A stretch of DNA of 64,000 nt from a virus (lineage: Duplodnaviria; Heunggongvirae; Uroviricota; Caudoviricetes). Location: the IMG/VR virus record IMGVR_UViG_3300021354_000005, positions 13,561-77,560 of that record; one strand, 5' to 3'. Each line of letters begins with the position of its first letter. Within the stretch, counting starts at the first letter, position 1. Below, piece after piece: positions 2,882 to 62,408 of the stretch. A program made the translations under genes and the position numbers. The notes under the pieces are model-generated. The model made no database searches, was not told where the DNA came from, and saw only the letters and a list, made by a program, of their open reading frames with translations.

Positions 2882-2882
2882 T

Positions 2883-3500: not shown

Positions 3501-3586
3501 AATAATAGAATTAGCAAATGTAATTTAAAATATAATATATACCAAGAGCAATAATAGATTTTGTTAATTTGGTATAACTGAATTAG

Positions 3587-6427: not shown

Positions 6428-6445
6428 ATCGAACGTTTGTATGAT

Positions 6446-9864: not shown

Positions 9865-9869
9865 TTGTA

Positions 9870-10088: not shown

Positions 10089-10111
10089 ATTATTTAATTT
10101 TATATATTAAT

Positions 10112-10732: not shown

Positions 10733-10747
10733 ATTTTTATTTTTTAA

Positions 10748-15568: not shown

Positions 15569-15577
15569 AGTTAATTA

Positions 15578-17030: not shown

Positions 17031-17032
17031 GT

Positions 17033-18999: not shown

Positions 19000-19104
19000 A
19001 CGGTTAAGTTTAGTTAAAATTACTGTAAAGATAGGGAATATTTTTGATATTCACCAAATTTAATTAACTAATTTGATTATATAGATTAATCAATCTAATT
19101 AGAG

Positions 19105-19175
19105 CTAAAACAAAAACCCCCAGGGTAGAAACCCCAGGGGACTCCCTGTAAACCAACAAACAGGGTTTTTGATAT
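19105..19175. terminator. bidirectional intrinsic terminator / multi-hairpin element inside the structural module
   Basis: Outer stem CAAAAACCC/GGGTTTTTG (19111-19119 with 19163-19171) encloses the inner hairpin CAGGG-GACT-CCCTG and a CCCCAGGG direct repeat. T/U runs follow on both strands. Confidence 0.55.
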
Positions 19176-19181
19176 TTTATA

Positions 19182-19763: not shown

Positions 19764-19791
19764 ATTGGTTTATTTATTTATTTTTATTAAT

Positions 19792-23216: not shown

Positions 23217-23235
23217 TTATTGTTGATTTATAATA

Positions 23236-24342: not shown

Positions 24343-24350
24343 TTTTCAGT

Positions 24351-24617
24351 TTATTTATAAATTAACAACTTCACTTTACTAGCAATCATTTGTACTGTAT
24401 AAGGTTCACAGTAAAATGGATTACAAAGTTTATATGTTAATATTTGTTTATAATTTAATAAGTCGCCTATCACTTGTCCTGGGATATAATAGTTTAGTGA
24501 AAATACTAAATTATTATACTGAATATTAGCCCAGTAAGTTAAGCGTTCATCTATATCAGATAATAATGCAGGGATACTGGCACTATCATAACAATCGGTT
24601 AATCTTGGAGATAACAT
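24351..24617 (-). CDS. hypothetical protein (88 aa)
   Basis: ORF from the track. A 49-codon Cys-rich ORF (MANCRNCGLKVGCGCQ...) starts at 24731 in another frame and overlaps its start. Confidence 0.35.
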   Translation of the reverse strand: MLSPRLTDCYDSASIPALLSDIDERLTYWANIQYNNLVFSLNYYIPGQVIGDLLNYKQILTYKLCNPFYCEPYTVQMIASKVKLLIYK

Positions 24618-24730
24618 GTTTAATTCTTTGAGATGCTTGTTTCAACTTGTAATTACATGCTGAACATAAGCCATTAATTAATTGACAACCACAGCCCACT
24701 TTAAGGCCACAGTTTCTACAGTTTGCCATA

Positions 24731-25345
24731 TCAATAGAAGTTATTTATATAGTTGTTACCAGAACAACCACAGTTGTTGGTTAAGAAATAATCTAATTGT
24801 CTATTTGCTTGAACATATAGTTTGTTTGCTGTATCTATAGCACAGTTATTAGCTGCAGCAATAGAACCTTGAATCATGAAATCTATACTACTTAACTGAA
24901 CCTTTGATTGTGTTCTAATAGCTGAATCACATTCCATCATATCCAGTTTCATAAATGCACCATCAAACTTTTCTTGGATCACTTCTGTACGCATGAAGTT
25001 CTTTTCTACAAAATTTGTAGCAGCAGGAGCCACTGAATATTTTAAACCATATATACCATCTGGTAAAGGAGTGGTTGCAGGAAATGGACTTAATCCTAAC
25101 ATAATAGAATTATATACATTAAAATCATTTGGTCTAAATGGAAGAGAGACAGGAGTAGAGAATCCAGGAATACTAATCTGCATAGTAGGAGCAGAAACAT
25201 TAGGAGGAGTAGTGTCATATACTGATATGTCAGCTATACCTAATGTTTTGGTAGAATACGTATTTATTACTAGGAAATCTAAAGTCATCTTATTTAAAAT
25301 AATAATGCCAGAGGATTTGAGATTCATCCTCTCACCCTCTGGCAT
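24731..25345 (-). CDS. hypothetical structural protein (204 aa)
   Basis: ORF in operon. Confidence 0.45.
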   Translation of the reverse strand: MPEGERMNLKSSGIIILNKMTLDFLVINTYSTKTLGIADISVYDTTPPNVSAPTMQISIPGFSTPVSLPFRPNDFNVYNSIMLGLSPFPATTPLPDGIYGLKYSVAPAATNFVEKNFMRTEVIQEKFDGAFMKLDMMECDSAIRTQSKVQLSSIDFMIQGSIAAANNCAIDTANKLYVQANRQLDYFLTNNCGCSGNNYINNFY

Positions 25346-25371
25346 AGGTTAATATGATACTACCCTTTTTC

Positions 25372-26508
25372 TTAAGGAATCAAAGTAGTAGTTGTTGAAG
25401 TACTTGGCCATATAGTAGTTGTAGTACTTGTTGTAGAAGTGATTGGACCACTGTCATCAACTGGAAGTCCTAATGCTGGTGTCAAGATAGCTAAGATATC
25501 TGCAGTTTGACTTTGAGGAATAGCAATAATTACAGTGCTATCTTCAATGATGTAGTCACCCCACTTGTACTCTGATTTGTCAACTGTGTTAAACTTAATA
25601 TACAAAGTATCATAAGTTGTACCACTAGTTACCCAGCTTTCAAAGTTTTCGTTGTAACCAACCATTCTGTATAAATGCTTCAAATATCCAGCTTGATAAC
25701 TATAGAAATTCTTTTCTAATTGTTGAATCTCAGCAGAAGTACCAGAAACATAAGAAGAACGTTGAGTGATTACAGGCTCAGCTACCATGTTACAAGGATC
25801 AGCAACAATAAAGTCAGCAGTTGTAGCAGGACCAGCAAAGATGAAGGTTCTGAACCACATACGATCGTACTCCCAAGGATCAGCAGCAACGTCACAAGGT
25901 TGTCCATAAACAGTTAAAGGCTTACCGCTAATAACTAATTTAGCATTTTGATCGTCACCAACTCTTTGGAATTGATAGAAAGTACTAAAAGAAATGTTGT
26001 CAGGGTTGTTACCTGGGGCTTTCAACTCTAAATGATAAATTAAATTATCAATTAATTGAGGAACATCAACATCTCCACAAGGGTTCTCACCACAAGCTAA
26101 GCAAGGAGCATTAACTGTTACTGAACGAGTGAAACCATTAAAGTACAAAGTATCAATATAAGAAGAATGAGCACGTAAAGTTAAAGTGATGATTTCTCCT
26201 GGTTTAACAGTGAAATTACCTACTTCAGTTACTTGATTAGCAGCTACAGGATTTCCTGTAACACTGTACCATTCACTTACATTAGAAGCAGAGATCTTAT
26301 CAGATCTTTTGCTACCTTGCAAATATGTGTTTACTCTACCTTGAGCGGCATAAAAATAAGGGGCAGCTGCAATATTACCTGCAGTTGCTACAGCATAGGT
26401 ATTGGTAAAGAAACCAAATTGTCCTGCTGTTAAGTCTTGTGTGGATCCAGTGCTAGGTAGAGTGTTTCCTACTGGCACCACAAAGAGCGTGGTTAATGAA
26501 AAATCCAT
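25372..26508 (-). CDS. hypothetical virion protein (378 aa) with a Thr/Ser-rich C-terminal tail
   Basis: ORF ending in ...ITSTTSTTTTIWPSTSTTTTLIP. Candidate tail or neck component. Confidence 0.45.
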   Translation of the reverse strand: MDFSLTTLFVVPVGNTLPSTGSTQDLTAGQFGFFTNTYAVATAGNIAAAPYFYAAQGRVNTYLQGSKRSDKISASNVSEWYSVTGNPVAANQVTEVGNFTVKPGEIITLTLRAHSSYIDTLYFNGFTRSVTVNAPCLACGENPCGDVDVPQLIDNLIYHLELKAPGNNPDNISFSTFYQFQRVGDDQNAKLVISGKPLTVYGQPCDVAADPWEYDRMWFRTFIFAGPATTADFIVADPCNMVAEPVITQRSSYVSGTSAEIQQLEKNFYSYQAGYLKHLYRMVGYNENFESWVTSGTTYDTLYIKFNTVDKSEYKWGDYIIEDSTVIIAIPQSQTADILAILTPALGLPVDDSGPITSTTSTTTTIWPSTSTTTTLIP

Positions 26509-26536
26509 TTTGTTTTATTTAAATTTTGAAAAAAAA

Positions 26537-27268
26537 TTACTCGTTTGTTCTTATTCTAACTTCAGCAGCTTGTACAGCTGGAGCATTCTCTGTGTACATT
26601 GCTAAGTTCTCAACTGTTAAATCTACTAATTCATCTTCTAGATACATAGCAAGTTCACAATCTGTGGTTATAGAATCTGTTCCATCGAAGTGAACATATC
26701 CCACTTTATCTATATATCTTGGATATCTTAAGTAAGATAGATATAATGTCTTTGGAGTGAAGGTACCATCTGAGTAAACCATTATCTGGTTTGTATTGAT
26801 GTTACTAAATGTCTCCTGATATTCAAATGATGGTCTATAGTGAGTGTTGTTTATAATAACAGGAATATCTCCATGTTTTACTAACTCTCTATTAATCCAT
26901 ATAGTTCTGTCTACACATCTACCTTTATCTGCCACAACATATGAATCCATGTAGAACATATATGCTGGTGTAATTCCTGTTAAATCTGCAGTCCACTGAT
27001 GTAACTGAGGGTTAGTTGGTACCAAGGGTAAAGGATGATCCTCATAGTTTTCAATCAGTTTCTGAAGATCTTCATAACGCTTTCTGAAAGCATCCAAACC
27101 AAGTGTACTTGGAGTGGCTGGACCATCAAGCTTTTGCTTGACCATTTTAATTTGGGCCTCATTCAGAGCTAAAATCTTATCTTCTAATTGAATCTGTTGA
27201 TGTTCGTTAGTTGATAGTTTATTTAGTTTCTGATCTATTTTATATAATAAACTATCTACTGGGATCAT
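26537..27268 (-). CDS. hypothetical head/neck protein (243 aa)
   Basis: ORF with a 4-nt ATGA overlap with the upstream gene. Sits in the head-completion region. Confidence 0.45.
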   Translation of the reverse strand: MIPVDSLLYKIDQKLNKLSTNEHQQIQLEDKILALNEAQIKMVKQKLDGPATPSTLGLDAFRKRYEDLQKLIENYEDHPLPLVPTNPQLHQWTADLTGITPAYMFYMDSYVVADKGRCVDRTIWINRELVKHGDIPVIINNTHYRPSFEYQETFSNINTNQIMVYSDGTFTPKTLYLSYLRYPRYIDKVGYVHFDGTDSITTDCELAMYLEDELVDLTVENLAMYTENAPAVQAAEVRIRTNE

Positions 27269-28233
27269 ATCGATGCTAATTTTTTACTTTTCAATTTGCC
27301 TTCTAATGTTAACAACGCATCTTGGTTATCTTCATCTATTAAGAACTTCACCAAATCTTCTTCATCTTTAGCTATTTCATTTTCTCCTTCAGTAATTTTA
27401 CCATTAGGTTTTACACGATATATAGAGTGAGTGATAGCTTGTTTTACTAAATCTTTAATATGGAGTAAGTTTTCCTTCATGTCTGCAAACTGGCCAAATA
27501 CCTGTACAGGATTTAAACCTTGATGTTTACCATTCTTGAATTCTGTTTGTTTTAATAGGTTATCCACTTGATTATATACCATGTCTTCTCTTGAATCTTC
27601 ACTAACTGGTAATCCTAATAATCTAGCCACTTTACGTTTCTTCTCTGCAGACATTGCATCAAATTTAATAATAGCCTTATTGATTAACTGCTTCTTCTTA
27701 AATATTACTGCATTTTCAATTTCATCATCTGCTACATAGAATTGTGTATCTGCTGGATATTCACCACGCTCCCAAGCTTGATAGCTAGAAGCAATTGTTG
27801 GATGAACTCTTAACCAAGCAAAGGCTAATTCTTGAGATGGATTGCTAAAATCAAAATAGTTATCACCATCTAATAATTTAACAGCTTGCACATGTAACAT
27901 GTCATCTGAAGAAGTTGATAAACCATAGTTCCAGAAACTAGAACGAGGACCTAAATCAATATCACCTAAAGCAGCTTCTAATCTTTTACGTAAATTAGTA
28001 ACTCTTTCAATTTCTAACTCTCTTTCAGTTATATCTTGTATTCTTCTGATGTATGCAGCACTAGCATCTAAGCCTGTTCTGTACTGTCCATCAAGTTCTT
28101 TATAAGGATACTTAAAAACTCCTGTACCAGGAATTCTTGTAAAGCCTTTAAGAGCAAGTCCACCTTGCATAGTTTGTAACTGAGAATTGTTATACTCCTT
28201 CTTTAAAGTGGAGATTTTTCCTATCTTACCCAT
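27265..28233 (-). CDS. hypothetical head/neck protein (322 aa)
   Basis: ORF between the HNH and the 243-aa gene. Confidence 0.45.
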   Translation of the reverse strand: MGKIGKISTLKKEYNNSQLQTMQGGLALKGFTRIPGTGVFKYPYKELDGQYRTGLDASAAYIRRIQDITERELEIERVTNLRKRLEAALGDIDLGPRSSFWNYGLSTSSDDMLHVQAVKLLDGDNYFDFSNPSQELAFAWLRVHPTIASSYQAWERGEYPADTQFYVADDEIENAVIFKKKQLINKAIIKFDAMSAEKKRKVARLLGLPVSEDSREDMVYNQVDNLLKQTEFKNGKHQGLNPVQVFGQFADMKENLLHIKDLVKQAITHSIYRVKPNGKITEGENEIAKDEEDLVKFLIDEDNQDALLTLEGKLKSKKLASI

Positions 28234-28236
28234 TTT

Positions 28237-28575
28237 TTATGTAGTTTTTGTTTGGTTTATAAAAAGTTGATTTCTTCTTTCAATTGTTTTAATTCTATGA
28301 CAATTTGCACATCTCACTTCACATTTACTTATCTCACTTGTTAGTCTTTCTAAAGACCATGCATTATTTACTGCATGAGATATGTTTCCTTCTTTATCAT
28401 CATTTATGTGGTCAAATTCTAGAACTCTTATATCTGTGTTTCCACAGTCTACACAAGGATGATTATTTAAGTAATCAGTTACAAATTCTCTGTTTCTCTT
28501 TTTACAAACCTCTCTAGAACTACTTCTATTGAGTTTTATAGATTCTTCTTTATTTACAGATCTGTACCTACCCAT
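28237..28575 (-). CDS. HNH endonuclease
   Basis: CVDCGNTDIRVLEFDHIND...HAVNNAW...CANCHRIKT, i.e. Cys pairs plus His-Asn-His. Track start is 28626. The internal Met at 28575 (MGRYRSV...) is preferred because 28576-28626 forms a perfect hairpin. Confidence 0.7.
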   Translation of the reverse strand: MGRYRSVNKEESIKLNRSSSREVCKKRNREFVTDYLNNHPCVDCGNTDIRVLEFDHINDDKEGNISHAVNNAWSLERLTSEISKCEVRCANCHRIKTIERRNQLFINQTKTT

Positions 28576-28579
28576 ATGT

Positions 28580-28739
28580 AGTTTTATTTGCAGATGGTTC
28601 CCATCGAAGGGAACACTGTACAGCATTTACTTGTACATGTCCATCTGTGATTGTGAGAAGACTCACCCACTTTTGATGAGTGGGGGGCAATTCTTCTCGG
28701 TATTTGTAGAGCATTAGTTCTAACCTTTGCCCTAGATTT
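28580..28739 (-). other. structured intergenic region downstream of the major capsid gene (two stem-loops)
   Basis: GTTCCC-ATCGAA-GGGAAC at 28597-28614 and CCCACT-TTTGATG-AGTGGG at 28666-28684. Locally GC-enriched. Confidence 0.45.
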
Positions 28740-30293
28740 TTAGAATTGTGGTATTTCTTCAATCAAGACTGTACGAGACAAATCTTCAATAAATACATCA
28801 CAACGATCTTTCATCCATAATTCATAACCAGGGAATTTGTTTGCAGAACTCATACCTTGAGACTTAGCAAAGCCTAAGTGGTGACGAGTACCATCAATAT
28901 AACCCCAAGTCATAGAAGGTGCACCCTTCATTCTTACCTCACGGATATTGTTAACCATAGAACCATCAGACATTGGAGATACATCAAACACCATAAATAC
29001 TGGAGTTGATTTCTTGTTTTGTCCAAACTCTAAGTTAGTTTGAGGTAAGTCTAATTCTTTCAAGTGAATAAGTTCAACACGACCAGTCTCACGAGTTACC
29101 ATTGCATCAAATGCAAAGTTGTAAGTGATATGTTGTCCTTCTCCTTGCATGTAACGATTACCAGAATCAGCCATGAAAGTTAAACCAGAATTTAAAGCGT
29201 CATTCTTCAAAGCTTGTTGGAACACGTCAAAACCAGCTTCATTAGTATACATTTTAACTCTACGATCTTTAACATCCACACGTCTGTAGAACAAATCACC
29301 AAACACAGAACGAATCAAGTTTGCAGTGAATTCTCCACGGTTGTACTGAACTAAGTTACCGTTATTTCTCATTCTGTGGTAAACACCAGCAGAAGTTCTC
29401 TTCAATTCTTGCTTAGAACCATTAGTTTTAACGGTACCTGGTTTAGCCCAGATCATACGCTTAACTTTTAATTCTAACATAGATTTACGCATCCAGAACT
29501 CAATAAATGGTTCCCATTTAACATCGTTACGAGTTAAAGGTAATTGGTTACGTCTTTGAGGAGCATAAACCAAAATATCTAAAGGCTTACCAGAAGCATC
29601 TCTCATCATCTTATCATCAGCCCACTCAGTGATTTTGTGCTCATAACCATATGCAGAACCTAAAGATTCAAACATTGTGATTTGCTCACCCAAACGAGGA
29701 AGACCTAATAAATCTTGATCAAACTCACCAATAGCAGCATCAACCAATTCTAATTCGATACCAATTCTTAAGAAGATAGGGCTTACGAAATCAACAACTG
29801 GATTGTCTGTAACCAAAGTGAAAGTGTATAAGTAACCAACGTTCCAAGGTTGAGGATCTTTAGTTACGTAGAAACGAGGACCATACTGACGAGTACCTAC
29901 AGACACAATTGCATTCTTAGAGAATTCGTTAGTGTCAATAATCAATTGAAACTCTTGACCATCAATACCTGGCTTAACCAAGTCTAATGTAGTTTGAGGG
30001 ATGTCAATGATTTTAGGGAATTTGTACGGAACTTGTACTTGCCACTTCCAAGCATCACTATTATTATCAATATAGTAAGGAGTACTCTTGTTAATCATGT
30101 CCAAGAAATCATTACTGTAAAGAGAACTCTGAGTGTAAAGGCTTATGATTTTCTTATCATAATCTGCTGGCTCAGTAGAGTGAAAGCTTTCCAAGTGGTT
30201 AGAATCTGTTAATTTACCTACAGCACGCTTGTCCATAGAAGCGACTCTAGCATAGGTAAAACCAGTTAAACCTGGAATTGTTTGAATTGCCAT
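28740..30293 (-). CDS. major capsid protein (putative)
   Basis: 517-aa ORF immediately downstream of the acidic scaffold-like gene, in terminase-portal-scaffold-capsid order. Followed by structured RNA elements. No motif-level proof. Confidence 0.5.
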   Translation of the reverse strand: MAIQTIPGLTGFTYARVASMDKRAVGKLTDSNHLESFHSTEPADYDKKIISLYTQSSLYSNDFLDMINKSTPYYIDNNSDAWKWQVQVPYKFPKIIDIPQTTLDLVKPGIDGQEFQLIIDTNEFSKNAIVSVGTRQYGPRFYVTKDPQPWNVGYLYTFTLVTDNPVVDFVSPIFLRIGIELELVDAAIGEFDQDLLGLPRLGEQITMFESLGSAYGYEHKITEWADDKMMRDASGKPLDILVYAPQRRNQLPLTRNDVKWEPFIEFWMRKSMLELKVKRMIWAKPGTVKTNGSKQELKRTSAGVYHRMRNNGNLVQYNRGEFTANLIRSVFGDLFYRRVDVKDRRVKMYTNEAGFDVFQQALKNDALNSGLTFMADSGNRYMQGEGQHITYNFAFDAMVTRETGRVELIHLKELDLPQTNLEFGQNKKSTPVFMVFDVSPMSDGSMVNNIREVRMKGAPSMTWGYIDGTRHHLGFAKSQGMSSANKFPGYELWMKDRCDVFIEDLSRTVLIEEIPQF

Positions 30294-30330
30294 TTTTTTA
30301 TTGTTTTAAATTTTTTAATTTATATTTGTA

Positions 30331-31611
30331 TTATACAAACCAAGAAGTGGAGTTTGCTTGTGTTTTACTTCCTGATTTGATTGCACTCTTCTGAGCTTGT
30401 CTAGCCACCTCACCAAATAACTCGTTGGACTTTTTGGTAAGACCTGTCTTTTGAATGGTAGATAATGTAGGATCTTTTTCTAATATTTTTAGTAAAAGCC
30501 CCACCTTAACTTTCTTCTCATGATTCTCAGGTCTCTTTAGGTCTAGGATAGTACGATCAAACTCTGTAAGCATTTCTCCTGTAGGAGTTTTGTATCTATC
30601 TGTAACCAGGAAATCTTGTAGTTCACCAGCAAGTTTTGGGTTCAAAGGAATACCATCAAACTCTTTAGCCTTCAATTTATCTTGAAGAACATTTTGAATA
30701 TTAGCAGTGTATTGTTGCTTATATTGAGCTTGTTGTTGTAATTGTACTTCCCTTTGTTGCTCAAGTTCTTGAAGCTTTGCAGCTTCCCTTTTAACTAAAA
30801 CCTTGTGATGCTTTGTAGCAACTGATTCAAGATCTCCGTAGTTTTTAAGTCTTTCAACTTCTGTTGTAACATCCTCAGGATCAAAGCCTTGATCAGCTAA
30901 AGCTTGTTTTAACACTGCAACTTGATTCGCCTCTTGAGTTAGGTCCATCTCAGTGAATGACTGTATTTTATTAAATGTGCCAAAATAGTCTACAGGTTTA
31001 ACCCCTTTTACAAATATGGCATCAAATGCATTTTGATAATCTTCTCCGTATTGACCAATGAAGTTATTTACTACTTCAATAGCTCCTTTCTTTTTCTCAG
31101 CATTGAAACGCTCAAGGAATTGTTCAGGAGTTGTAATTGGTTCTTCATCTTCATCATCTTCTTTTGAAAAGACTCCTAATTTGAAAAGGTCCTTAGATAA
31201 AGAACTGAAAGTTGATTCAGCAGGAGCATCTCCTTCTTCTTCATCATCCTTGTTTTCCTCGGTAGTTGATTCAGCTTTAGGAGCTTTAGTTTTTGTAGGA
31301 GCAGGAGTTTCATCTTCTTCATCTTCTTTATCATCTCCTAAAAGGAAATCTTGAAGTGATTTAGTTGAATCTTCTTTATCTTTACTATCAGTTTCTGCTG
31401 CAGGAGCATCCTTTTTAGAAGGAGCTTGTTTTGCTGGTGCAGGTTCTGTAGTTTTATCAGGAGTATTAATATCCTGAAGATCATCTGGATTAGTTGTTGA
31501 GGTTTCTGGACCCATTAAGTCGTTCAACAACTCTTGGTTTCCCATTCCCATTTCCATAGTATCTTGAATACTAAAGTTACCAAATGATTGGTTATCTAAA
31601 TTCTCAGCCAT
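30331..31611 (-). CDS. scaffolding protein (putative)
   Basis: Highly acidic low-complexity N-terminal half (D/E/K/T/P-rich) and a coiled-coil C-terminal half (EQQREVQLQQQAQYKQQ). Sits between portal and capsid genes. Confidence 0.5.
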   Translation of the reverse strand: MAENLDNQSFGNFSIQDTMEMGMGNQELLNDLMGPETSTTNPDDLQDINTPDKTTEPAPAKQAPSKKDAPAAETDSKDKEDSTKSLQDFLLGDDKEDEEDETPAPTKTKAPKAESTTEENKDDEEEGDAPAESTFSSLSKDLFKLGVFSKEDDEDEEPITTPEQFLERFNAEKKKGAIEVVNNFIGQYGEDYQNAFDAIFVKGVKPVDYFGTFNKIQSFTEMDLTQEANQVAVLKQALADQGFDPEDVTTEVERLKNYGDLESVATKHHKVLVKREAAKLQELEQQREVQLQQQAQYKQQYTANIQNVLQDKLKAKEFDGIPLNPKLAGELQDFLVTDRYKTPTGEMLTEFDRTILDLKRPENHEKKVKVGLLLKILEKDPTLSTIQKTGLTKKSNELFGEVARQAQKSAIKSGSKTQANSTSWFV

Positions 31612-31730
31612 ATGTAGTTGTATTTATTTGGTTTTCAAGTGTAAAAGTATACTAAGTTAAATTAATAGCAAAGAGATAGAACACTATATCGCTTGATATT
31701 CAGGATAATATAGCATTAATGTTTTTTGCT

Positions 31731-32261
31731 CTAATCTAATTTATTAAGAAAGTTGTCATTTATAAGCCTAATGCTTCTTATTGGAGCAAGATCTGTAAGG
31801 GTAACTTGTTGAACCTCAACTCCCCACTTCCTAGCTTCCACCCTTACTTTTTTAGTTAATGTGTTATCAAGTTCAGAATCTGTACATTCATCTAGCGTCA
31901 TAGACATAATGACATTTTTTATAATACTTGATGACATATCTGACAAAGCATCCTGAGCATCATACACCTCAAGAAGAAATATCTTAACATCAGCTATTCT
32001 ATATTTGACTAATCCCTTAACAACTATATTCTGTTTATCTTTAGTATATAAAGACTGAGCATCAAGACTTAATGTTGTAACAACGACATGCTGATCTATC
32101 ACCTCATCAAACATAGGTATTTTTAGATGTATACCTGGCTTGAGAAGTTTTTTAAACTTCCCAAACCTAAGTAATACAGCTTCTTCGTAATCTCTGATTA
32201 TAACTATTGGCTTTATTTCAATCCACCAATTGGTTAATAGTTCAACCAGTTTATCAAACAT
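31731..32261 (-). CDS. hypothetical protein (176 aa) between portal and scaffold genes
   Basis: ORF. No protease motif recognised. Confidence 0.4.
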   Translation of the reverse strand: MFDKLVELLTNWWIEIKPIVIIRDYEEAVLLRFGKFKKLLKPGIHLKIPMFDEVIDQHVVVTTLSLDAQSLYTKDKQNIVVKGLVKYRIADVKIFLLEVYDAQDALSDMSSSIIKNVIMSMTLDECTDSELDNTLTKKVRVEARKWGVEVQQVTLTDLAPIRSIRLINDNFLNKLD

Positions 32262-32263
32262 AA

Positions 32264-34843
32264 TTATTTAGTTTTACTTCTACCTTTAGCATTAATTTTA
32301 GCTATTTCTATATCGTCTTTATGATTCTTTCTTTCATTATCTAATTTCTCTCTTTCAACCTTAAGCTTTTCCATGGCTACATTATTCTTACTTTGAATAT
32401 CCATCATTTTAGTTCTATAATCATTAGAAGCTTTTGTTTGTTCATTTGCTAATCTGTTAGTTTCTAATATATCAGGAACACCATTTTGATTTACATCTAA
32501 TGGAACATTCTCTCTACCCTCAGCTTGAATAGTAGCAATCTCTTGTTTACTGATTCTATCCAATTCTTTTTGATAGTTATCATTAGCCATTTGCTCTTGT
32601 TGTTGTCTTTGAGCTTCTTGGATTTGAGCATCAGTAGCATATCTCTCTTGATCAATTTGTTGTTGCTTCTGTTGCATTTGTTGTTGTTGAATAGTATCTT
32701 GCTTCTCTTTAAGATCTTTAAATACTTTCTTCATCTGACGTACAGAGTTAGTGCTGTATAACTCAATTATATCATATAAGCTTCCACCATTCTGAATAAC
32801 AGCTTGAGATAATCCTCTGATTTCTTCAAACATCTTCTTATCTTCTGGTCTGTTAGTTAAGAATACTTTTAAGTCTCTGAATTTCAAGTCATTACCATTT
32901 ACAGAAACAAAAGCAGAGTCTCCTCTAGAAGTAACATAAGAAATTGTAGATTGTGGTTTAGAACTTTCTACATATTGAGCAGCATCAATAATAGCTTGAT
33001 AAAGTTGGCCTAATATGTATTCATGAGCTACAAATAAAGGTTCTGTTTGAGAATAACTTTGTTGAATAGCTGTATTGGTTCCTGTAGCTGATTCACTAGC
33101 TGATACAGAACCAAGTCTTTGCTTAGACATACCAATCAATTCCCAACACTCATTTTTTAATTGCATAGCAAGTGTATAACGAGATTGAATCTCCTGAGTA
33201 CGTGTCATGTCAATATCTCTGAACTGATTGAAACTAGAAGGACTCTTCAAATTCTCAGGACTATCATCTATAAATACAACTCCTCTATTACGAGCTTCCA
33301 TTTCCCAAATGTCTAATGCATCTTGAGCATCACCATCTTTAGGAATAGGAATGTGTCTAATAGACATAAGCTGAACCTTACCTACCTCTTTCTCAAGAAG
33401 TTTATAAAGCTGGTTCATACATACATTATATAATACTTGGAAAGGTTTCATAAGATCTACTAAGCTCTTAGCTTCTGTATTCTTCACCTCATGAATCAAT
33501 CCTATAATAGGACAATAGTCTAGTAATTTATATGGTTTGATATTGTAGATGTCTGGACCAATCTTAACTCCTTGATACCATTGGTTAATCCATCCCCATT
33601 CTAATGACACTTGTGTAGGAATAGTTCCTGATTTATAATCTTCATCTACAAGTAATGACTGCTCATTACCCATTTCATCTGTATAGATAAGTTTACCTAT
33701 CTTCTTCTTAGAAATCCAATAAGCTCTTACAGTTACATACTTATAACCAAAACTACTAACGTTTGACGTTAGTCCTAAGAAGTCTTGTAATCCATCATTG
33801 TTCTCTTTCATTTCAGATTCAATAATCATTCTAGTTTGTAGAACTAATGGATCATATGTATCATATTGTACAGAGTCAATACCTGGTGTAGCATTAGGAT
33901 TACCTAAATTAGATTCACGTACATTGATTAATCCATAATCTTGTAGTGAACTTCTTAGGTGATCTATCTCATCTTTAGTTAAGTCAGGGAATGTTTCAAT
34001 AATTTCAGATAGCTCCATAACTTGTACAATACCAGCAGCATATGCTCCTTGTGCTCTACCTGTAGGATCTGAAATCCATTTTCTATCTGGAGTAGTTAAG
34101 AACCAAGTGTTTTTAGGATTGGCTACCTCTACATTAAATCCTAGTTTAGAGTTGTCCTCATAGATATGATAAAACTCTCTAGAAGATATTAATAAATCTC
34201 TGAATGCATCTTCTGATTTTTCCTTCATTACAAACTCAGCTTTCTGAGATGTAAGTATATGATTAGCCCATTTCTCAGCTACAGATGTGTAAGAATCAAG
34301 TTCATCCTTCACCTCATTTAATGTCATCTTTTGAACATCTTCATCACTAAGTTCTTCTCCTTTTAATGCAGCATCTTGTTGAATCTTTTCTCTAGCTTGA
34401 CCAATAACATAATCCTGAAGAATTTTTGTTTTGAATTCTAGCTCCTCTGATTGACTATCAGAATCAAATGCCTTCACTCGAAAAGAATCTGGTCTCTTAC
34501 TAATCTCTCCAACTAATTCATTTAATGGTGTAGTGATGATTGAATACATCTTTACATATGCTGGAAGCTGTAAGTCTGATGTAAGAACATCAGTGAAACT
34601 TCTAACCTGTGGCTCTTGATAAAAGTCTTCCATACGTAGAATACCTTTTACCAAATCATAGTTTTTAACAAATGTATCTCTGTTCTTTACATATTCAGCA
34701 TAAGCTCTATTTGCAAAGTAATCCATTGTATTCTTAACCCAACTCTCGTCTTGCTTCTCCTTATCAGTCTTAAACTGATCAGGGAAGATGTTTAAATATG
34801 CATACCTTATGGTAGCGTCTTTAGTATACCTTATAATTGCCAT
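32264..34843 (-). CDS. portal protein (putative)
   Basis: 859-aa ORF immediately downstream of the large terminase. C-terminal Q/E-rich coiled coil. Position-based call. Confidence 0.5.
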   Translation of the reverse strand: MAIIRYTKDATIRYAYLNIFPDQFKTDKEKQDESWVKNTMDYFANRAYAEYVKNRDTFVKNYDLVKGILRMEDFYQEPQVRSFTDVLTSDLQLPAYVKMYSIITTPLNELVGEISKRPDSFRVKAFDSDSQSEELEFKTKILQDYVIGQAREKIQQDAALKGEELSDEDVQKMTLNEVKDELDSYTSVAEKWANHILTSQKAEFVMKEKSEDAFRDLLISSREFYHIYEDNSKLGFNVEVANPKNTWFLTTPDRKWISDPTGRAQGAYAAGIVQVMELSEIIETFPDLTKDEIDHLRSSLQDYGLINVRESNLGNPNATPGIDSVQYDTYDPLVLQTRMIIESEMKENNDGLQDFLGLTSNVSSFGYKYVTVRAYWISKKKIGKLIYTDEMGNEQSLLVDEDYKSGTIPTQVSLEWGWINQWYQGVKIGPDIYNIKPYKLLDYCPIIGLIHEVKNTEAKSLVDLMKPFQVLYNVCMNQLYKLLEKEVGKVQLMSIRHIPIPKDGDAQDALDIWEMEARNRGVVFIDDSPENLKSPSSFNQFRDIDMTRTQEIQSRYTLAMQLKNECWELIGMSKQRLGSVSASESATGTNTAIQQSYSQTEPLFVAHEYILGQLYQAIIDAAQYVESSKPQSTISYVTSRGDSAFVSVNGNDLKFRDLKVFLTNRPEDKKMFEEIRGLSQAVIQNGGSLYDIIELYSTNSVRQMKKVFKDLKEKQDTIQQQQMQQKQQQIDQERYATDAQIQEAQRQQQEQMANDNYQKELDRISKQEIATIQAEGRENVPLDVNQNGVPDILETNRLANEQTKASNDYRTKMMDIQSKNNVAMEKLKVEREKLDNERKNHKDDIEIAKINAKGRSKTK

Positions 34844-36879
34844 TATGTAAACAATTTATTTTTATGTTTTCTAGGAGTTCTTCCAAACATCCCTCCTCTT
34901 GATTCTGTAAATAATACATTTCCTTTCTTCTTTGTAAACATTGCTTTTACTCTCTCATCACCTGATCCTCCCACCTTTCCAATGATTGGGTCCATCTTAA
35001 CTGCTTGAGCAATAGCAAGTTCTGCAGCAATGATACGGTCAAAGTTACCTGAATCATTGTATTGTATAATCTCTTCTAACAATACAGGATCAAATATCTT
35101 ATTCACTCCCAATGTTTCTCTTATAACTACACCATTATCATCCTTCTCTATATGTATTGCTTCTTCCATATACTTCTTTAAACAAGTGTGAAGATAGTCA
35201 ATTATTTTCTGACTTGAACGATGAATTCCATAATCTCTTTTTACAGTGGTATTTGGAACTATTTCTTTAAGCCAATCAGGTTGTCTCTCTAGATAATGTG
35301 CATCTCCCTTACTCTTCATATATTCAATAAAGGATATATCATCATTCTCACAAAGTGTACGTGCATTATAATATTTAATAAGGAGTCTAGCTTGGTCATT
35401 CCAATGATCCTTATTATCTGGTCTTGCACAATAAGAAGCTACAAACATATCTTGATACTTCTCACCTGTTATATCATGCATTCGTTTATAAACATAAACT
35501 GCTCCTAGAGAGGAGCTATATGCTGATTGTCCTTGTCTGTAAGGATCGACTCCTGCTACATACAATCCATATGCTGGATTTTGTATAGGGAATTCATATA
35601 TAATAACAGGTGCATCTTTATTATCACTATTCTTTAAAGGGAAGTTTGTAATAGGTAATTTGTCTGTAAACTCATGCTTTACACCTTCTTCTTCTAGAAT
35701 TAGAATAACAGGAGTTCCTGTTCTTTCTTGTTGTTGAAGTCTAAACTTCTGTCTCTTAGCTGATTCAATATCAAAGATGTTTGTATCCTCATTCAAGAAT
35801 ATATCATCTACCTCTTGTGGGTAGTACATCTTCTCTTTTAAATAAGCTACTCTATCTCCAGCTTTCTTAAGTCTTTCTAAATTCTTATTAGTAATCTCTG
35901 TAGCTTTTTCTTCATTAGAGACTAACATTTTTATATTATGTAATTGAGAATCAATAGGTTCTTTTAAGAATGCTCCAAGTGTAGATTCCTCCTTTGCCTC
36001 CATTCTATACTTGTGATTGATAAACAATCCATGTATACGTTTATCATCTTTCTCATTATTATATGTAAGGAAATTAAAATTCTCTACATCAAACATTAAG
36101 CTTTTAGCATCCATGAATTTCTTCATATCCCCACCAGTCCCAGTAAGTATGGGGCTACATCCCCAACCATAAGGTGTAGTGAAACCTGGAATAGCAGCTT
36201 GTAAGCCTCGAAGGAAATTTCCTTTACCAATTTCATCTATAATTAATTTACGTGGTTTTGTACCTGCAATTGCTTCTTCATTATTACCTTCATCAAGGTT
36301 ACGAATTAGAATAGAAGAAAATGGAATACGTTCACCACCTTTAGTTTTAATACCTAATGTGATTTGGTTCTTCCAATTATCTTCAATCCTCTGCCATCTC
36401 CAATATTCAGGAATGAAATTCAAACCTTTATCAATCTTATCTGTAATAAGTTTAATATCTGGAGCATTCAAACCAGCAATGATGTTTTGGCTATTCTCAT
36501 CAAATGTGGCTCCCCATGCTATATAACTAGCTTCAATAACGGACTTAGCAAAACGTCTAATACCTAGAATGACTAAGCCCCTCTTATCTTGCTGAGCTCT
36601 GTCAATTTCGTTTGTTACAATCCATTCATTATCACGTAGAAAGGGATTGGCATATTTTTGTGATATTCTTCCACGCTCATCAATCACATCCACTTCTGTA
36701 TGCCATATATTTAGATGCCAATATAAAAAGGGGTTAATATAAACCCCATCCATCATAGCACCATTTAAACATAATTCTTTATGGAAATCAAAGAATGGTT
36801 TACACTCCTGAGAGTCTTTATCAGGAATACGCTTCTGATTAATAAACCAGTCTTTGTAATCTATATTCTGTAGTTCCAT
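34843..36879 (-). CDS. terminase large subunit (putative)
   Basis: 678 aa. Walker-B-like LIIDEIG, deviant Walker-A region GIRRFAKS, and a C-terminal nuclease-like acidic motif (VAGVDPY). First large gene of the late operon, followed by the portal. Confidence 0.55.
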   Translation of the reverse strand: MELQNIDYKDWFINQKRIPDKDSQECKPFFDFHKELCLNGAMMDGVYINPFLYWHLNIWHTEVDVIDERGRISQKYANPFLRDNEWIVTNEIDRAQQDKRGLVILGIRRFAKSVIEASYIAWGATFDENSQNIIAGLNAPDIKLITDKIDKGLNFIPEYWRWQRIEDNWKNQITLGIKTKGGERIPFSSILIRNLDEGNNEEAIAGTKPRKLIIDEIGKGNFLRGLQAAIPGFTTPYGWGCSPILTGTGGDMKKFMDAKSLMFDVENFNFLTYNNEKDDKRIHGLFINHKYRMEAKEESTLGAFLKEPIDSQLHNIKMLVSNEEKATEITNKNLERLKKAGDRVAYLKEKMYYPQEVDDIFLNEDTNIFDIESAKRQKFRLQQQERTGTPVILILEEEGVKHEFTDKLPITNFPLKNSDNKDAPVIIYEFPIQNPAYGLYVAGVDPYRQGQSAYSSSLGAVYVYKRMHDITGEKYQDMFVASYCARPDNKDHWNDQARLLIKYYNARTLCENDDISFIEYMKSKGDAHYLERQPDWLKEIVPNTTVKRDYGIHRSSQKIIDYLHTCLKKYMEEAIHIEKDDNGVVIRETLGVNKIFDPVLLEEIIQYNDSGNFDRIIAAELAIAQAVKMDPIIGKVGGSGDERVKAMFTKKKGNVLFTESRGGMFGRTPRKHKNKLFT

Positions 36880-37211
36880 TATTTTCTGTTCTTTAAGAAC
36901 TCTTCAGCTTGGCCTCCTAGTTCTCCCTTACCTCTAATCTCCACCTTAGCTTCTTCCATACTTCTCAACTTATCAACCACCTCAACTAGAGCTAAATAGT
37001 TTTTCATAGTCTCTTGAACAAATTTACCCTGAGCTTCAATAGAGGCAATTACCATAGGTAACATTCCTCCTTTAGCTGTAGGTTTCCACTCAATCCTATC
37101 CTTCAATTCATGAAGGGGATTAGCATTAACATAAGCTTTCCATGAAACAAGCTGTTGCTCAGCCCATTCAAGCTCAGTGTTTATATATGTAGTTTTCTTA
37201 ATAGTCGCCAT
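36879..37211 (-). CDS. small protein (110 aa); candidate terminase small subunit
   Basis: Immediately upstream of the large terminase with a 1-nt overlap. No motif. Confidence 0.3.
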   Translation of the reverse strand: MATIKKTTYINTELEWAEQQLVSWKAYVNANPLHELKDRIEWKPTAKGGMLPMVIASIEAQGKFVQETMKNYLALVEVVDKLRSMEEAKVEIRGKGELGGQAEEFLKNRK

Positions 37212-37482
37212 CTTCTTCCTCCTCTTTTAATATATTATCAAGATCCATTCCCTCTTTTATAATCTTCTCTAGTTCATTATCATCTGTATGTGGAACATCC
37301 ATTCCAATCTCAGTCTTATATTTCTCTAAAGCAAACGCTATTTCTTTATCTGTTATTCCCCATATATCTCCATAATCACTAAGAGCTGTAGCTAAGTGTC
37401 TTCCCAAGTTGTATGTAGGAAAGTCCTTATGTAGTTCTTGTAATATATGAAGAGCTTGTTGGTAGTTATTCTTCTTACTCAT
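37198..37482 (-). CDS. small acidic protein (94 aa)
   Basis: ORF in operon. Confidence 0.4.
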   Translation of the reverse strand: MSKKNNYQQALHILQELHKDFPTYNLGRHLATALSDYGDIWGITDKEIAFALEKYKTEIGMDVPHTDDNELEKIIKEGMDLDNILKEEEEDGDY

Positions 37483-37739
37483 ATTAGTTGATCTAAGTCT
37501 TCTTCAGACAGTTTTTCATCCTTTAAAGACACAAAGTCCATACTTGGAGCATCTTTAAAATTATCTTCAGCACCCTCCATCATATAATCTGATGTGAATG
37601 TGATGGCCATTCTTTCATCATCCCCTTCTGGCACTGCTATTATATCTATATAATCTACCCCTTTATTATATAAGTCCATAAGTATATCTATGAAGTTATC
37701 TAAGGGGATTTTTTTAATTGATGGTACGTTGCTTTCCAT
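37479..37739 (-). CDS. small acidic protein (86 aa)
   Basis: ORF in operon with a 4-nt overlap. Confidence 0.4.
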   Translation of the reverse strand: MESNVPSIKKIPLDNFIDILMDLYNKGVDYIDIIAVPEGDDERMAITFTSDYMMEGAEDNFKDAPSMDFVSLKDEKLSEEDLDQLI

Positions 37740-38025
37740 GGATTTCTTTTTTTAAAGCATCCTCTTCATCAATGGACATTACTTCCTCCCATTTCTTCAA
37801 AGGACACGAACATGATAAACATTTTGTCTTGGCAGCTAGTGTACATCCACAATTTGTACAATGCACATCTGGTCTAACAGATTTATGTTTTGTAGATATT
37901 AATTCACATTCATTACATATGGCCATTCTTTCCTCACCAATCTTTTTTAGATGAGCTCTCATTTCCTTGGCTGGAAATAGGTTGTTTTTCCAACCCTCAT
38001 AAACTTGGGAGAAATTAATCTTCAT
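37714..38025 (-). CDS. Cys-rich zinc-finger protein (103 aa)
   Basis: CNECELISTKHKSVRPDVHCTNCGCTLAAKTKCLSCSCP. Multiple CxxC pairs. Confidence 0.45.
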   Translation of the reverse strand: MKINFSQVYEGWKNNLFPAKEMRAHLKKIGEERMAICNECELISTKHKSVRPDVHCTNCGCTLAAKTKCLSCSCPLKKWEEVMSIDEEDALKKEIHGKQRTIN

Positions 38026-38371
38026 ATGTAGATGTTCTAGCTTTTAATTCATTTATAGAAACTATTGTCTTCTCTAGAGTGACAATAGAAGATCTTCTTT
38101 TCTGTTCTGAAGTTTCTTCATTTTGTATTATCTTCTCTAGAGCCCCTTTCTTAGCATTCAAAGCTCCTATCCTTTTCACTGCCTTCTTGTTGTTAAAGAA
38201 GAACTTTCCAAATCCACTTATCTCCACACTACTGTTTAAATCCATTGCTTCGTTAGCTGACTGAAACTGATGGTTAATTACAGCTTCAATTAACTTCTCA
38301 CTCTTCAGGATTTTTACAGCCAACGTTCTAACTAGGAAATCCTTGACGGACATTGTTATTGGCTTATCCAT
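38015..38371 (-). CDS. HU/IHF-family DNA-binding protein (histone-like)
   Basis: SVEISGFGKFFFNNKKAVKRIGALNAKKG matches the HU beta-arm signature (VxLxGFGxFxV..R.aR.gRNP). 118 aa, basic. Confidence 0.5.
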   Translation of the reverse strand: MDKPITMSVKDFLVRTLAVKILKSEKLIEAVINHQFQSANEAMDLNSSVEISGFGKFFFNNKKAVKRIGALNAKKGALEKIIQNEETSEQKRRSSIVTLEKTIVSINELKARTSTYED

Positions 38372-38720
38372 GTATCACATTAATTTGTAATGTAATGTCC
38401 TTATCAAAATTCAGGACAATAATTGGATTCACCTTTATCTTACTGCCATCCTTTATAAACACCCCTATACGCTTCAGCTTACTTATCATATTATTAATCG
38501 TAGGGGGCGAGGAGTTGTATTTCTTGCAGAACTCTTCTCTGATGTTGGCATAGGAGATGTTTCCCTTTATAGCTGTAAAGGCTATAAGCTGTATCTCCCT
38601 GGTGGTAAGTTTTAAATCATTAACAGCTGACAGCAAACTATAATACTTCTCAGCAGCAGCATAACTATCTGTCACTTGCTTCTTAAGCTTCTGTACTATT
38701 ATTTTGTTTGTTGGTTCCAT
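38364..38720 (-). CDS. putative HTH transcriptional regulator; first gene of the leftward operon
   Basis: C-terminal segment TTREIQLIAFTAIKGNISYANIREEF...INNMISKLKRIGV resembles sigma region-4/LuxR-type helix-turn-helix. Gene abuts the control region. Confidence 0.4.
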   Translation of the reverse strand: MEPTNKIIVQKLKKQVTDSYAAAEKYYSLLSAVNDLKLTTREIQLIAFTAIKGNISYANIREEFCKKYNSSPPTINNMISKLKRIGVFIKDGSKIKVNPIIVLNFDKDITLQINVIHG

Positions 38721-53842: not shown

Positions 53843-54899
53843 GAGACAACAAGAGTTTGCTCAAATATTCTTAGACCATGGAGAATTTGGTATCCTTAAT
53901 CTATGCCCTAGATTTGGTAAAATATTTACGTCCATTAATATATTAGAAAAACTGGACAAAGATATCAATATTCTAATAGCCTATCCTGATTTAAAGATTA
54001 AGGCTGCTTGGGAAGAGGATTTTAAGAAAAGGAAGTATAAGAATCAGAACATCACTTATACCACTCACTTATCTCTTAAAAAGCATACAGCTGGCTTCTA
54101 TGACCTTGTAATACTAGATGAGATACATTTACTCTCTGAAGCACAAATAGAGGCTGTAAAGGAGCTACAATGCGTCAGTGTGCTTGGTTTAACAGGTACC
54201 CTATCTAGCTGGACAGAGAAAACACTTAATAGTGAGCTTCAGTTGTCAGTGTTAGCTAGATATCCTATTGAGCAAGCTATTGATGAGGGTGTTATTACAG
54301 ACTATGAAATCACTGTGGTTAGCACAGCTCTTGATAATACAAGACTAAATGACTACAAAGGTAAACATAGAACAGAAAAGAAGCAGTTTGATAGCTATGG
54401 GTGGGTGATTGATCAACTAGAGAGACAGAATAAACCAACTATGTTCCTCAGGTTAGCTAGAATGAGAATCATTCAAAATAGTATAGCCAAGATGGAACTC
54501 ACTAGAAGGTTATTAGCTAAACATAAAGATGAACGAGTGTTAGTATTCTGTGGACTCACAAAAATAGCTGATGATTTAGGTATTCCTGTCTATCATAGTA
54601 AAGCAGGTGAGAAGGATACATTTGAAGCATTTGCTAATGGTGAGGGTAATCATCTAGCTGTTGTTAAAATAGGCAACACTGGTGTTACATACAAACCACT
54701 CAACCGTGTGATAATCAATTACTTTGATAGCAATGGTGAGAATCTAGCACAAAAGATTAACAGATGTATGGCTATGGAATACAACACACCAGATAAAAAG
54801 GCACACATATACATTGTGTCATCTACTGAAGAAGTAGAAAAGAAATGGCTTAAGAGTGCTCTTGAGTTTTTTGATAAAGATAAAATAAAATACATATGA
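53805..54899 (+). CDS. SF2-type helicase/ATPase (DEAH-like)
   Basis: Motif I-like CPRFGKIF, motif II VILDEIHLL, motif III GLTGTL. Confidence 0.5.
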   Translation: MAKNKPILTLRDKRQQEFAQIFLDHGEFGILNLCPRFGKIFTSINILEKLDKDINILIAYPDLKIKAAWEEDFKKRKYKNQNITYTTHLSLKKHTAGFYDLVILDEIHLLSEAQIEAVKELQCVSVLGLTGTLSSWTEKTLNSELQLSVLARYPIEQAIDEGVITDYEITVVSTALDNTRLNDYKGKHRTEKKQFDSYGWVIDQLERQNKPTMFLRLARMRIIQNSIAKMELTRRLLAKHKDERVLVFCGLTKIADDLGIPVYHSKAGEKDTFEAFANGEGNHLAVVKIGNTGVTYKPLNRVIINYFDSNGENLAQKINRCMAMEYNTPDKKAHIYIVSSTEEVEKKWLKSALEFFDKDKIKYI

Positions 54900-55309
54900 T
54901 AGTTAATCTAGATAAAGAAGAACTTATTATAAAAGCTTTAGGTATTTCAGTTTTGGTTAAAAAAGAGGAAAAACTTATGACTATTGAGATAAAACAAGAA
55001 GGTTTTAAAGATCCTGTTAAAACAATAATTGTACCTGCCTCAATAAAAGGAGCAACTAAAGAAAATATAATAAATATATTAAAAACTCCACTAGAAGATT
55101 TAAATCTTTCAGTACGTTCATATAACTGTATAAAAGCTGCTAGAATTAATACATTAGTAGAATTAGTTAACTATACTGATACAGATTTAATGCGTTTTAG
55201 AAACTTTGGTCAAAAATCCATAGGTGAAATTCAAAATGAATTAGCAACAAGAGGGTTAACTCTTGGCATGAATACAGATGAAATATTTAAATACAATCTA
55301 ACATTTTAA
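54896..55309 (+). CDS. protein with an RNA polymerase alpha-subunit C-terminal domain (alphaCTD)
   Basis: DLNLSVRSYNCIKAARINTLVELVNYTDTDLMRFRNFGQKSIGEIQNELATRGLTLGM aligns near-collinearly with E. coli RpoA 255-320 (DLELTVRSANCLKAE...[22 protein letters not shown]). Confidence 0.7.
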   Translation: MIVNLDKEELIIKALGISVLVKKEEKLMTIEIKQEGFKDPVKTIIVPASIKGATKENIINILKTPLEDLNLSVRSYNCIKAARINTLVELVNYTDTDLMRFRNFGQKSIGEIQNELATRGLTLGMNTDEIFKYNLTF

Positions 55310-55535: not shown

Positions 55536-55539
55536 AACT

Positions 55540-62397: not shown

Positions 62398-62408
62398 AAA
62401 ACAAAAAC

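Follow-up and report, generated by a model that had tools for sequence, protein, structure and literature searches.

A gene in an uncultured tailed phage was found to encode a free-standing alpha-subunit C-terminal domain (aCTD) of bacterial RNA polymerase (RNAP). The gene lies at 54896-55309 of a 64,000-nucleotide (nt) stretch of IMG/VR record IMGVR_UViG_3300021354_000005 (positions 13,561 to 77,560), which we refer to throughout as the window. Its product of 137 amino acids (aa) is a member of the aCTD family by sequence and fold; it is not an RpoA, because the N-terminal domain of alpha (aNTD) is absent. We tentatively favour, at less than an even chance and from sequence and predicted structure, a role as a diffusible mimic of the host aCTD that would take over transcription at A/T-rich DNA upstream of promoters. 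The gene and its parts are as follows; pLDDT denotes the predicted local distance difference test score of AlphaFold2.

54896-55309, plus strand: phage aCTD gene, ATG start, 137 aa, stop codon included (from the open reading frame list)
54896-55045, plus strand: orphan N-terminal beta-domain, residues 1-50, a four-strand antiparallel meander (strands 9-14, 17-24, 27-34 and 42-47)
55046-55066, plus strand: flexible linker, residues 51-57, with pLDDT <50 at 51-53; insertions and deletions within the family map here
55067-55279, plus strand: aCTD (PF03118), residues 58-128; the R74 codon is 55115-55117, and N77, C78, G105, K107 and S108 are among the DNA-binding residues
55280-55306, plus strand: C-terminal tail TDEIFKYNLTF, residues 129-137, specific to the family and absent from RpoA in alignments

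Identification of the domain

A Pfam search of the protein gave a single match, to PF03118 (RNA_pol_A_CTD; E = 1.4e-22, 79.6 bits, against a curated gathering cutoff of 23.8 bits), which covers profile positions 7-66 of 67 and residues 58-117. Nothing else was returned at E <= 1, neither a helix-hairpin-helix family of the ComEA, RuvA or Pol-beta type nor the aNTD families PF01000 and PF01193. The sequence search of the PDB returned 55 distinct chains, all of them RNAP alpha (best E = 6e-17), with 1z3e (Spx) and 2jzb (NusA AR2) included. A free-standing, phage-encoded aCTD had been proposed in a first-pass annotation made from the sequence alone, and these matches bear it out. The extent given there needed correction: the domain is present, but at residues ~58-128 rather than ~70-137, and what precedes it is indeed not aCTD, but consists of ~50 aa plus a ~7-aa linker rather than ~70 aa. 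The description of the alignment as almost residue-for-residue is fair for Bacteroidota RpoA, which is 65-68% identical to the window aCTD, but overstated for E. coli, where BLASTP gave 32/65 identities (49%) without gaps. The numbering of the E. coli sequence was checked by counting back from residue 329.

The structure was predicted with AlphaFold2 from a 22-sequence alignment of the nine family members (see below) and Bacteroidota aCTD fragments, at a mean pLDDT of 80.7; a 3-sequence input was unusable (pLDDT 47.5). The model has four antiparallel beta-strands across residues 9-47 (sequence-block mean pLDDT ~68-86), disorder at 51-53, a helical aCTD at 55-118 (block means mostly ~90-95), and a short helix at 127-132 followed by a disordered C-terminal end. 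The helical part is compact, contains two helix-hairpin-helix motifs and superposes on solved aCTDs.

The N-terminal part is unrelated to RpoA, as had been claimed. A hidden Markov model (HMM) of 80 Bacteroidota RpoA sequences scored residues 1-57 at -0.5 to -1.3 bits, with no sign of an aNTD, and an apparent MAFFT match of this part to RpoA was dismissed as a forced alignment. A family profile of the N-terminal domain found nothing below E ~1 among PDB sequences or in Pfam, and no RNAP-binding domain could be recognised by the same comparison. Pfam and PHROGs likewise gave no ADP-ribosyltransferase, GNAT or gp67-fold domain in the window protein, and PHROGs hold no family for it or for the other phage aCTD proteins tried. 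Read from the sequence, the strands alternate hydrophobic and polar residues (e.g., I-S-V-L-V-K-K and L-M-T-I-E-I-K), which suggests a one-sided sheet whose hydrophobic face would be buried via self-association or by a partner. An internal start at M28, preceded by a Shine-Dalgarno-like AGAGGA, was ruled out, as residues 1-27 are conserved while M28 is not. Without an aNTD the protein cannot assemble into RNAP, and thus must act in trans.

Conserved surfaces

Adding 191 to a residue number of the phage protein gives the equivalent position in E. coli alpha. The 265 determinant is complete, with L71, R74, N77, C78, K80, N103, G105, K107, S108 and E111 standing as in E. coli (L262, R265, N268, C269, K271, N294, G296, K298, S299 and E302). 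The equivalents of R265, G296, K298 and S299 are invariant in 9/9 family members, and the window protein and most of the family also have those of N268, C269, K271 and N294. The K297 equivalent is Q in the window protein, and likewise in host Bacteroidota RpoA. In the 261 determinant (E. coli D258, D259 and E261), an acidic patch that touches sigma region 4, E67 and D68 are kept and E261 is replaced by N70, a position that is D in most relatives and in host RpoA. The first-pass annotation had allowed that the segment might turn out to be a generic helix-hairpin-helix module without the 261 and 265 determinants; with PF03118 as the sole match, a complete 265 set and two of three acidic 261 residues, it did not. 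At the 287 determinant (E. coli T285-L290, R317 and L318), the window protein reads T-D-T-D-L-M and N-T, versus E-Q-E-D-L-M and D-L in the host. The clearest constraint therefore falls on the DNA-contact surface, and the intact contact residues lead us to infer an aCTD competent for DNA binding.

These surfaces bear on the idea of a protein-level decoy, in which free aCTD would titrate away host or defence proteins that normally dock on the aCTD of RNAP (a defence sensor, Spx- or NusA-like factors, activators), with DNA binding a side issue. Regulators are known to converge on the aCTD, the Spx (1z3e) and NusA AR2 (2jzb) entries are among the matches, and the domain tracks host sequence, as matching a host partner surface would need. 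However, conservation within the phage family is lowest on the surface that activators are known to contact in E. coli, whereas the DNA-contact residues are kept, and we regard a decoy as quite improbable.

One clade, one locus

Relatives were sought among 5.8 billion proteins with a word index, among 1.84 billion cluster representatives with an exhaustive HMM search, and by profile re-search. The full-length architecture was found in only nine 90%-identity clusters of 131-141 aa (P0001, P0002, P0003, P0029, P0175, P0043, P0176, P0144 and P0177). The window protein is 100% identical to P0001, which was seen on 8 metagenome contigs from several samples; the eight other clusters are diverged, yet of similar length (131-141 aa) and with a common N-terminal start, M[IKT][IV][NE]L. 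The C-terminal tail follows the pattern [DE].[ILFV][KR]..L[TI]F in 6/9 members, whereas host RpoA ends in ...LSKLGLDKEEL. The family is confined to one clade of uncultured Bacteroidota phages with a crAss-type muzzle protein.

The aCTD fold itself is promiscuous, with 17,372 representatives at E <= 0.001, multi-repeat and fusion proteins included. Tandem repeats reach 12 aCTDs in one protein (e.g., P0026, 1031 aa, from a set with P0069 and P0155, likewise from the exhaustive search, and P0083 and P0104), and in further fusions a Chitinophagaceae-type linker and aCTD follow an Hsp20 domain or a signal-peptide-like N-terminus; some of these proteins may be assembly chimeras. Among 50,697 phage records the domain is rare in genuine ones, being essentially limited to Bacillus phage Goe8, a few fecal contigs and a weak match in Ruegeria phage V16; most tblastn matches labelled as phage were bacterial rpoA in mislabelled or contaminated records. 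Scanning IMG/VR with a 3-sequence family alignment gave no confirmed locus, and a broader alignment recovered only a different family, in which an excisionase-type HTH_17 domain, sigma-70 region 4 and a coiled coil are followed by a C-terminal aCTD (288-332 aa). Its loci are:

L091 5365-6228, L092 5281-6201, L094 5293-6201 and L095 1377-2258: sigma-70 region 4 plus aCTD proteins, IMG/VR
MT835636.1 (L109) 4449-5447: sigma-70 region 4 plus aCTD protein, GenBank, an 'UNVERIFIED' fecal contig

The R265, G296 and K298 equivalents are kept in MT835636.1 and in L091-L095, which come from the viral-contig collection. These proteins are evidently sequence-specific regulators. They join both upstream-promoter-recognition modules of the holoenzyme in one polypeptide, an arrangement for which no description was found.

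The window represents a tailed phage organised in two divergent arms, with a large terminase, a portal, a major head protein and a crAss-type muzzle protein. The minus-strand arm (155..38720) carries these genes together with a collagen-repeat tail fibre and large virion-type open reading frames (ORFs); the muzzle homolog is 1605 aa long (10748-15568, minus strand) and matches PF25731 (Crassvirus muzzle protein) at E = 6e-31. The plus-strand arm encodes a DNA polymerase, a DnaB-like helicase, a superfamily 2 (SF2) helicase, the aCTD protein, a 70-aa ORF, a Sak4-like annealing protein, a primase, rIIA and rIIB. The immediate neighbours of the aCTD gene are:

53805-54899, plus strand: SF2 helicase, 364 aa (PHROG 16, 'DNA helicase'; ResIII and Helicase_C matches)
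55323-55535, plus strand: conserved 70-aa ORF, found in related loci directly 3′ of the aCTD gene or after one small inserted ORF
55504-56211, plus strand: Sak4-like single-stranded DNA-annealing protein (PHROG 2872, E = 1.2e-52)

The TGA stop of the helicase and the ATG of the aCTD gene share 4 nt (ATGA), and the same overlap is present in the locus of every relative. All loci that are long enough have the order DnaB-like helicase, small ORF, SF2 helicase, aCTD gene, 70-aa ORF and Sak4-like gene, the last sometimes preceded by an additional small ORF after the 70-aa ORF. The aCTD gene has thus been kept at a single locus in 9 diverged lineages. The 70-aa ORF, which has no PHROG match, may be a functional partner of the aCTD protein. 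The true start of the Sak4-like gene is probably the ATG at 55540, giving 223 aa as called in relatives. No terminator-like hairpin was found between ~50.5 and 58.5 kb, which places the aCTD gene within an extended replication block of co-directional genes. Among cultured phages, the nearest one with this helicase is Flavobacterium phage Fpv20 (28% identity), which has no aCTD gene; its gp66, encoded 3′ of the homologous helicase, was dismissed as a counterpart because it has no similarity to the window protein. A megablast search with 6 kb around the gene gave no match among GenBank phages.

Judged by its muzzle homolog, the phage would belong in or near the crAss-like assemblage. Its large terminase subunit (TerL) is 38.8% identical to that of Leptolyngbya phage Lbo-JY46, 31% to those of Cellulophaga phages phi17:2 and phi4:1, and 26-30% to those of crAss-like phages.

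Exchange with host rpoA

The nearest cellular aCTDs belong to Chitinophagaceae and related Bacteroidota, with named matches in Chitinophagaceae, Ferruginibacter and Sphingobacteriia; P0008 is identical to a Niastella RpoA. Over a 66-aa core, the phage C-terminal domains (CTDs) are 61-71% identical to Chitinophagaceae RpoA and 53-68% identical among themselves (closest pair excluded), while the N-terminal parts are 17-72% identical among themselves. Over 155 nt, the DNA of the window gene matches Chitinophagaceae rpoA at 73% identity. These comparisons indicate the 3′ end of a Bacteroidota (Chitinophagaceae-like) rpoA as the source of the captured CTD, and the lineages described next indicate, for at least two of them, re-import of the CTD or its patching by recombination.

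The CTD of P0144 (L101, 292-717) is 94% identical to that of Chitinophagaceae rpoA in protein and 81% in DNA over 236 nt, and the imported tract covers part of the RpoA interdomain linker. Its GC content is 0.35, close to the 0.36 of the rpoA segment, versus 0.25 in the gene's own N-terminal part. Compared with the window, the L101 helicase is 86% identical, the 70-aa ORF 49%, and the aCTD protein 39%, with a strongly diverged N-terminal part. This protein is present on three contigs, which come from one NCBI assembly and two JGI samples. This points to a fresh capture of host rpoA at the same locus.

In the pair P0043 and P0176, the DNA is 98-100% identical over the upstream 600 nt and at both gene ends, while nt 183-316 hold 27 differences, mostly in two clusters (nt 214-233 and 268-300), where the R265-K271 helix and the 287 loop are encoded. 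The CTD core (codons 61-106) has a synonymous divergence (pS) of 0.35, compared with 0.04 for the helicase and 0.00 for the gene flanks, a pattern that argues for imported sequence rather than point mutation. The donor was not found: the best rpoA among 80 Chitinophagaceae-type loci is 81% identical, and no closer phage paralog was seen.

Between the window and an 80%-identical relative, the ratio of nonsynonymous to synonymous rates (dN/dS) is 0.17-0.23 in the CTD and 0.65-0.67 in the N-terminal part, so the whole gene is under purifying selection, the CTD more strongly. This bears on whether the gene might be a functionless passenger, a decaying fragment of host rpoA left by illegitimate recombination. 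Some members do look damaged, since P0144 has a one-residue insertion and a Q-to-P change in its G296 loop (KKSRNFGPKS), and P0043 has lost N268 and C269 (QQ). Against decay, the ORF is intact and of constant length in 9 diverged lineages at one locus, dN/dS is <1, the non-RpoA N-terminal domain and tail are conserved, and the R, G, K and S DNA-contact residues are invariant. A passenger is thus highly improbable.

The same data weigh on the main rival explanation, that the protein is a DNA-binding accessory of replication or recombination. Here, the beta-domain or tail would bind the co-translated SF2 helicase, Sak4 or the replisome, and the aCTD, as a double helix-hairpin-helix module, would grip the minor groove of A/T-rich DNA, for example at the origin; transcription would not be the target. 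The strict coupling of the gene to the helicase, amid replication and recombination genes, speaks for this. However, a dedicated partner would be expected to co-evolve more closely with its helicase than in L101 (86% versus 39% identity), it is not obvious what a generic DNA handle would gain from taking up host rpoA-like sequence time and again, and Flavobacterium phage Fpv20 replicates without any aCTD gene. We consider an accessory role possible but somewhat unlikely. A fast-changing, host-tracking gene between conserved neighbours looks like what would be expected of a host-interaction factor.

Proposed role

The preference for a host-aCTD mimic that shuts off or redirects transcription has four grounds. 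The only well-established biology of the aCTD is recognition of promoter-upstream DNA and contact with regulators; phages repeatedly target the aCTD and UP-element function; a rapidly remodelled, host-tracking gene resembles a host-interaction factor; and, to express their later genes, such phages have to manage host RNAP. In the crAss-like phage phi14:2, the whole replication arm forms the early class and is transcribed by an injected virion RNAP, and host RNAP transcribes the middle and late genes (bioRxiv 10.1101/2020.03.07.982082). The first-pass annotation had put the gene in an early/replication arm; its location in the replication arm stands, with 'early' coming solely from the phi14:2 analogy.

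For the aCTD protein we infer DNA binding, oligomerisation, expression timing and an effect on transcription along the following lines. It would be produced alongside the replication-arm genes, which, by analogy with phi14:2, would be expressed early, before host RNAP takes the middle and late genes. The beta-domain would self-associate or dock on a partner, making the protein multivalent. Its aCTD, or aCTDs, would then fill minor-groove sites in A/T-rich, UP-element-type DNA upstream of promoters, so that strong host promoters would lose their aCTD-dependent boost and host RNAP would be biased toward phage promoters. In the fullest version of this proposal, a distantly crAss-related clade renews its aCTD mimic from host rpoA, and this trans-acting 'extra alpha-CTD' reprogrammes promoter choice, either through shutoff of host promoters that depend on UP elements or activators or through handover to phage middle and late promoters. 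That combined account is rather unlikely to hold in all its parts.

Several observations weigh against a mimic. A free monomeric aCTD competes poorly with an RNAP-tethered one unless it is multivalent or very abundant; the N-terminal beta-domain and C-terminal tail would therefore probably supply avidity or targeting. The 287-determinant positions are variable in the phage family and nearly invariant in Bacteroidota RpoA fragments, and a divergent 287 surface argues against faithful mimicry of the activator-contact surface. These two points also complicate the competition with host alpha for UP elements and activators that the first-pass annotation considered. All neighbours are replication or recombination genes and the start codon is coupled to the helicase, which fits a role in DNA metabolism equally well. 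Matches to the full UP-element consensus are not enriched in the window (4 observed versus 4.07 expected). Finally, relatedness to crAss-like phages rests on the muzzle homolog and a TerL identity of 26-31%, and the DFDxD motif of the crAss virion RNAP was not found within the 64-kb window of a ~116-kb genome.

A positive adaptor for middle and late phage transcription is a further explanation, in which an extra aCTD would recruit host RNAP via promoter-upstream DNA, or the beta-domain or tail would contact RNAP or sigma; expression would thereby switch from early to middle and late genes, much as with the replication-linked activators T4 gp33/gp55-gp45 or N4 SSB. The arm that holds the gene is expected to be early, 3/4 of the UP-consensus-like matches in the window fall in the 1-kb control region between the arms, and the second phage family, with its aCTD joined to sigma-70 region 4 and a helix-turn-helix domain, shows that Bacteroidota phages use the aCTD in promoter-recognition proteins. 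However, the UP-like clustering involves tiny numbers, and the N-terminal part has no recognisable RNAP-binding domain. The leftward genes have no shared upstream promoter motif with an A/T block, and the Bacteroidota -7 motif TAnnTTTG was found near only 3 of their starts, too few for a promoter model. A scan for sigma-70-type promoters gave a count below the shuffle expectation, with a model unsuited to Bacteroidota. An adaptor is in our view unlikely.

An origin or a control function is probable for the non-coding 1 kb between the divergent arms (38721-39731), where several palindromes occur together with iteron-like direct repeats, namely 3 x 23 nt (at 39062, 39160 and 39192), 3 x AxATATTATAA, 2 x 12 nt ATGTCCCTTATA and 2 x 14 nt CC[TA]GTCATAACCCT.

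Other features of the window

Among the large virion- or cargo-type ORFs of the structural arm is an 851-aa protein (6446-9001, minus strand) with a His_Phos_1 match at E = 5e-20, which is unusual in such an arm. A 768-aa protein (20910-23216, minus strand) has collagen triple-helix repeats and a C-terminal Peptidase_S74 chaperone domain, and is probably a tail fibre. GC-rich inverted repeats followed by a T-run (CCCTGTTTGTTGGTTTACAGGG ... CCCCTGGGGTTTCTACCCTGGGGGTTTTTGTTTT) at 19100-19160 (minus strand), in an AT-rich intergenic region, are likely a terminator between structural-gene blocks. Within 24343-24730 (minus strand), a stretch given as intergenic, lies a small Cys-rich ORF (MANCRNCGLKVGCGCQLINGLCSACNYK...) that may encode a zinc-ribbon protein. 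The replication arm also carries rIIA-like and rIIB-like genes (60040-63971, plus strand) and a 2-oxoglutarate-Fe(II) oxygenase (49850-50449, plus strand). No Rfam match and no tRNA were found in the window.

Relation to known systems

ORFs that consist of an aCTD without an aNTD have already been annotated in cultured phages. Erythrobacter phage vB_EliS-L02 ORF40 is one such case (PMC9127768). Bacillus phage vB_BmeM-Goe8 is another, in which similarity to the window protein is limited to the CTD (47% over 49 aa). Its 210-aa ORF (L097, 1959-2591) carries the annotation 'RNA polymerase subunit alpha' and is surrounded by small hypothetical ORFs within the initial 5.5 kb of the genome; the match occurs at two places in the record and represents an independent case of a phage aCTD, in a Firmicutes phage. 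These other aCTD-only ORFs differ from the present family in their N-terminal parts, lengths, host phyla and genomic positions, and have no PHROG family. We found no functional study of a phage aCTD-only protein in the searchable literature, the coverage of which is incomplete, so that this is absence of evidence only. What is new here is the architecture of beta-domain, aCTD and tail, its restriction to one clade, the fixed coupling to the SF2 helicase, and the capture and re-capture of rpoA at the DNA level.

Compared with Chitinophagaceae RpoA, with which it shares the aCTD, the phage protein lacks the aNTD and has an orphan beta-domain, a much shorter linker, another tail and diverged 287 positions. 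With the sigma-70 region 4 family it has the C-terminal aCTD in common, but not the HTH_17 domain, Sigma70_r4 or the coiled coil. Repeated exchange with host rpoA provides a host-assignment marker (Chitinophagaceae-like) for an uncultured phage clade, and also exemplifies gene conversion between phage and host at a gene essential to the latter.

Replication-linked activators of late transcription by host RNAP are known from T4 (the gp45 clamp with gp33 and gp55) and from N4 (its single-stranded DNA-binding protein, SSB); gp33 and gp55 dock via short C-terminal tails. Like the window protein, these factors are encoded amid replication genes, and they act on host RNAP, but there is no homology and the likeness is one of analogy only. 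Neither a clamp gene nor a clamp-binding motif was identified here. If the replication-accessory explanation were true, the protein would represent a more ordinary domain recruitment. If a mimic is the correct explanation, it would offer a handle on the handover of transcription to host RNAP in crAss-related phages, and on the role of the aCTD in Bacteroidota, where neither promoters nor activator contacts follow the E. coli paradigm.

Several phage factors reportedly act on the same host component. T4 Alt and ModA are said to ADP-ribosylate R265 of alpha, gp67 of Staphylococcus phage G1 reportedly blocks contacts between the aCTD and UP elements at rRNA promoters, and Rac of phiKMV is reported to cleave alpha. 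The proposed target process is the same, namely aCTD-dependent host transcription, although none of them is related to the window protein in sequence or domains, and the parallel is drawn from the proposed function. They act catalytically or by binding sigma or RNAP, whereas the window protein would act by domain mimicry. If this holds, domain mimicry would be a strategy distinct from ADP-ribosylation, sigma-bound blocking and alpha cleavage, and the protein would represent a new class of take-over factor.

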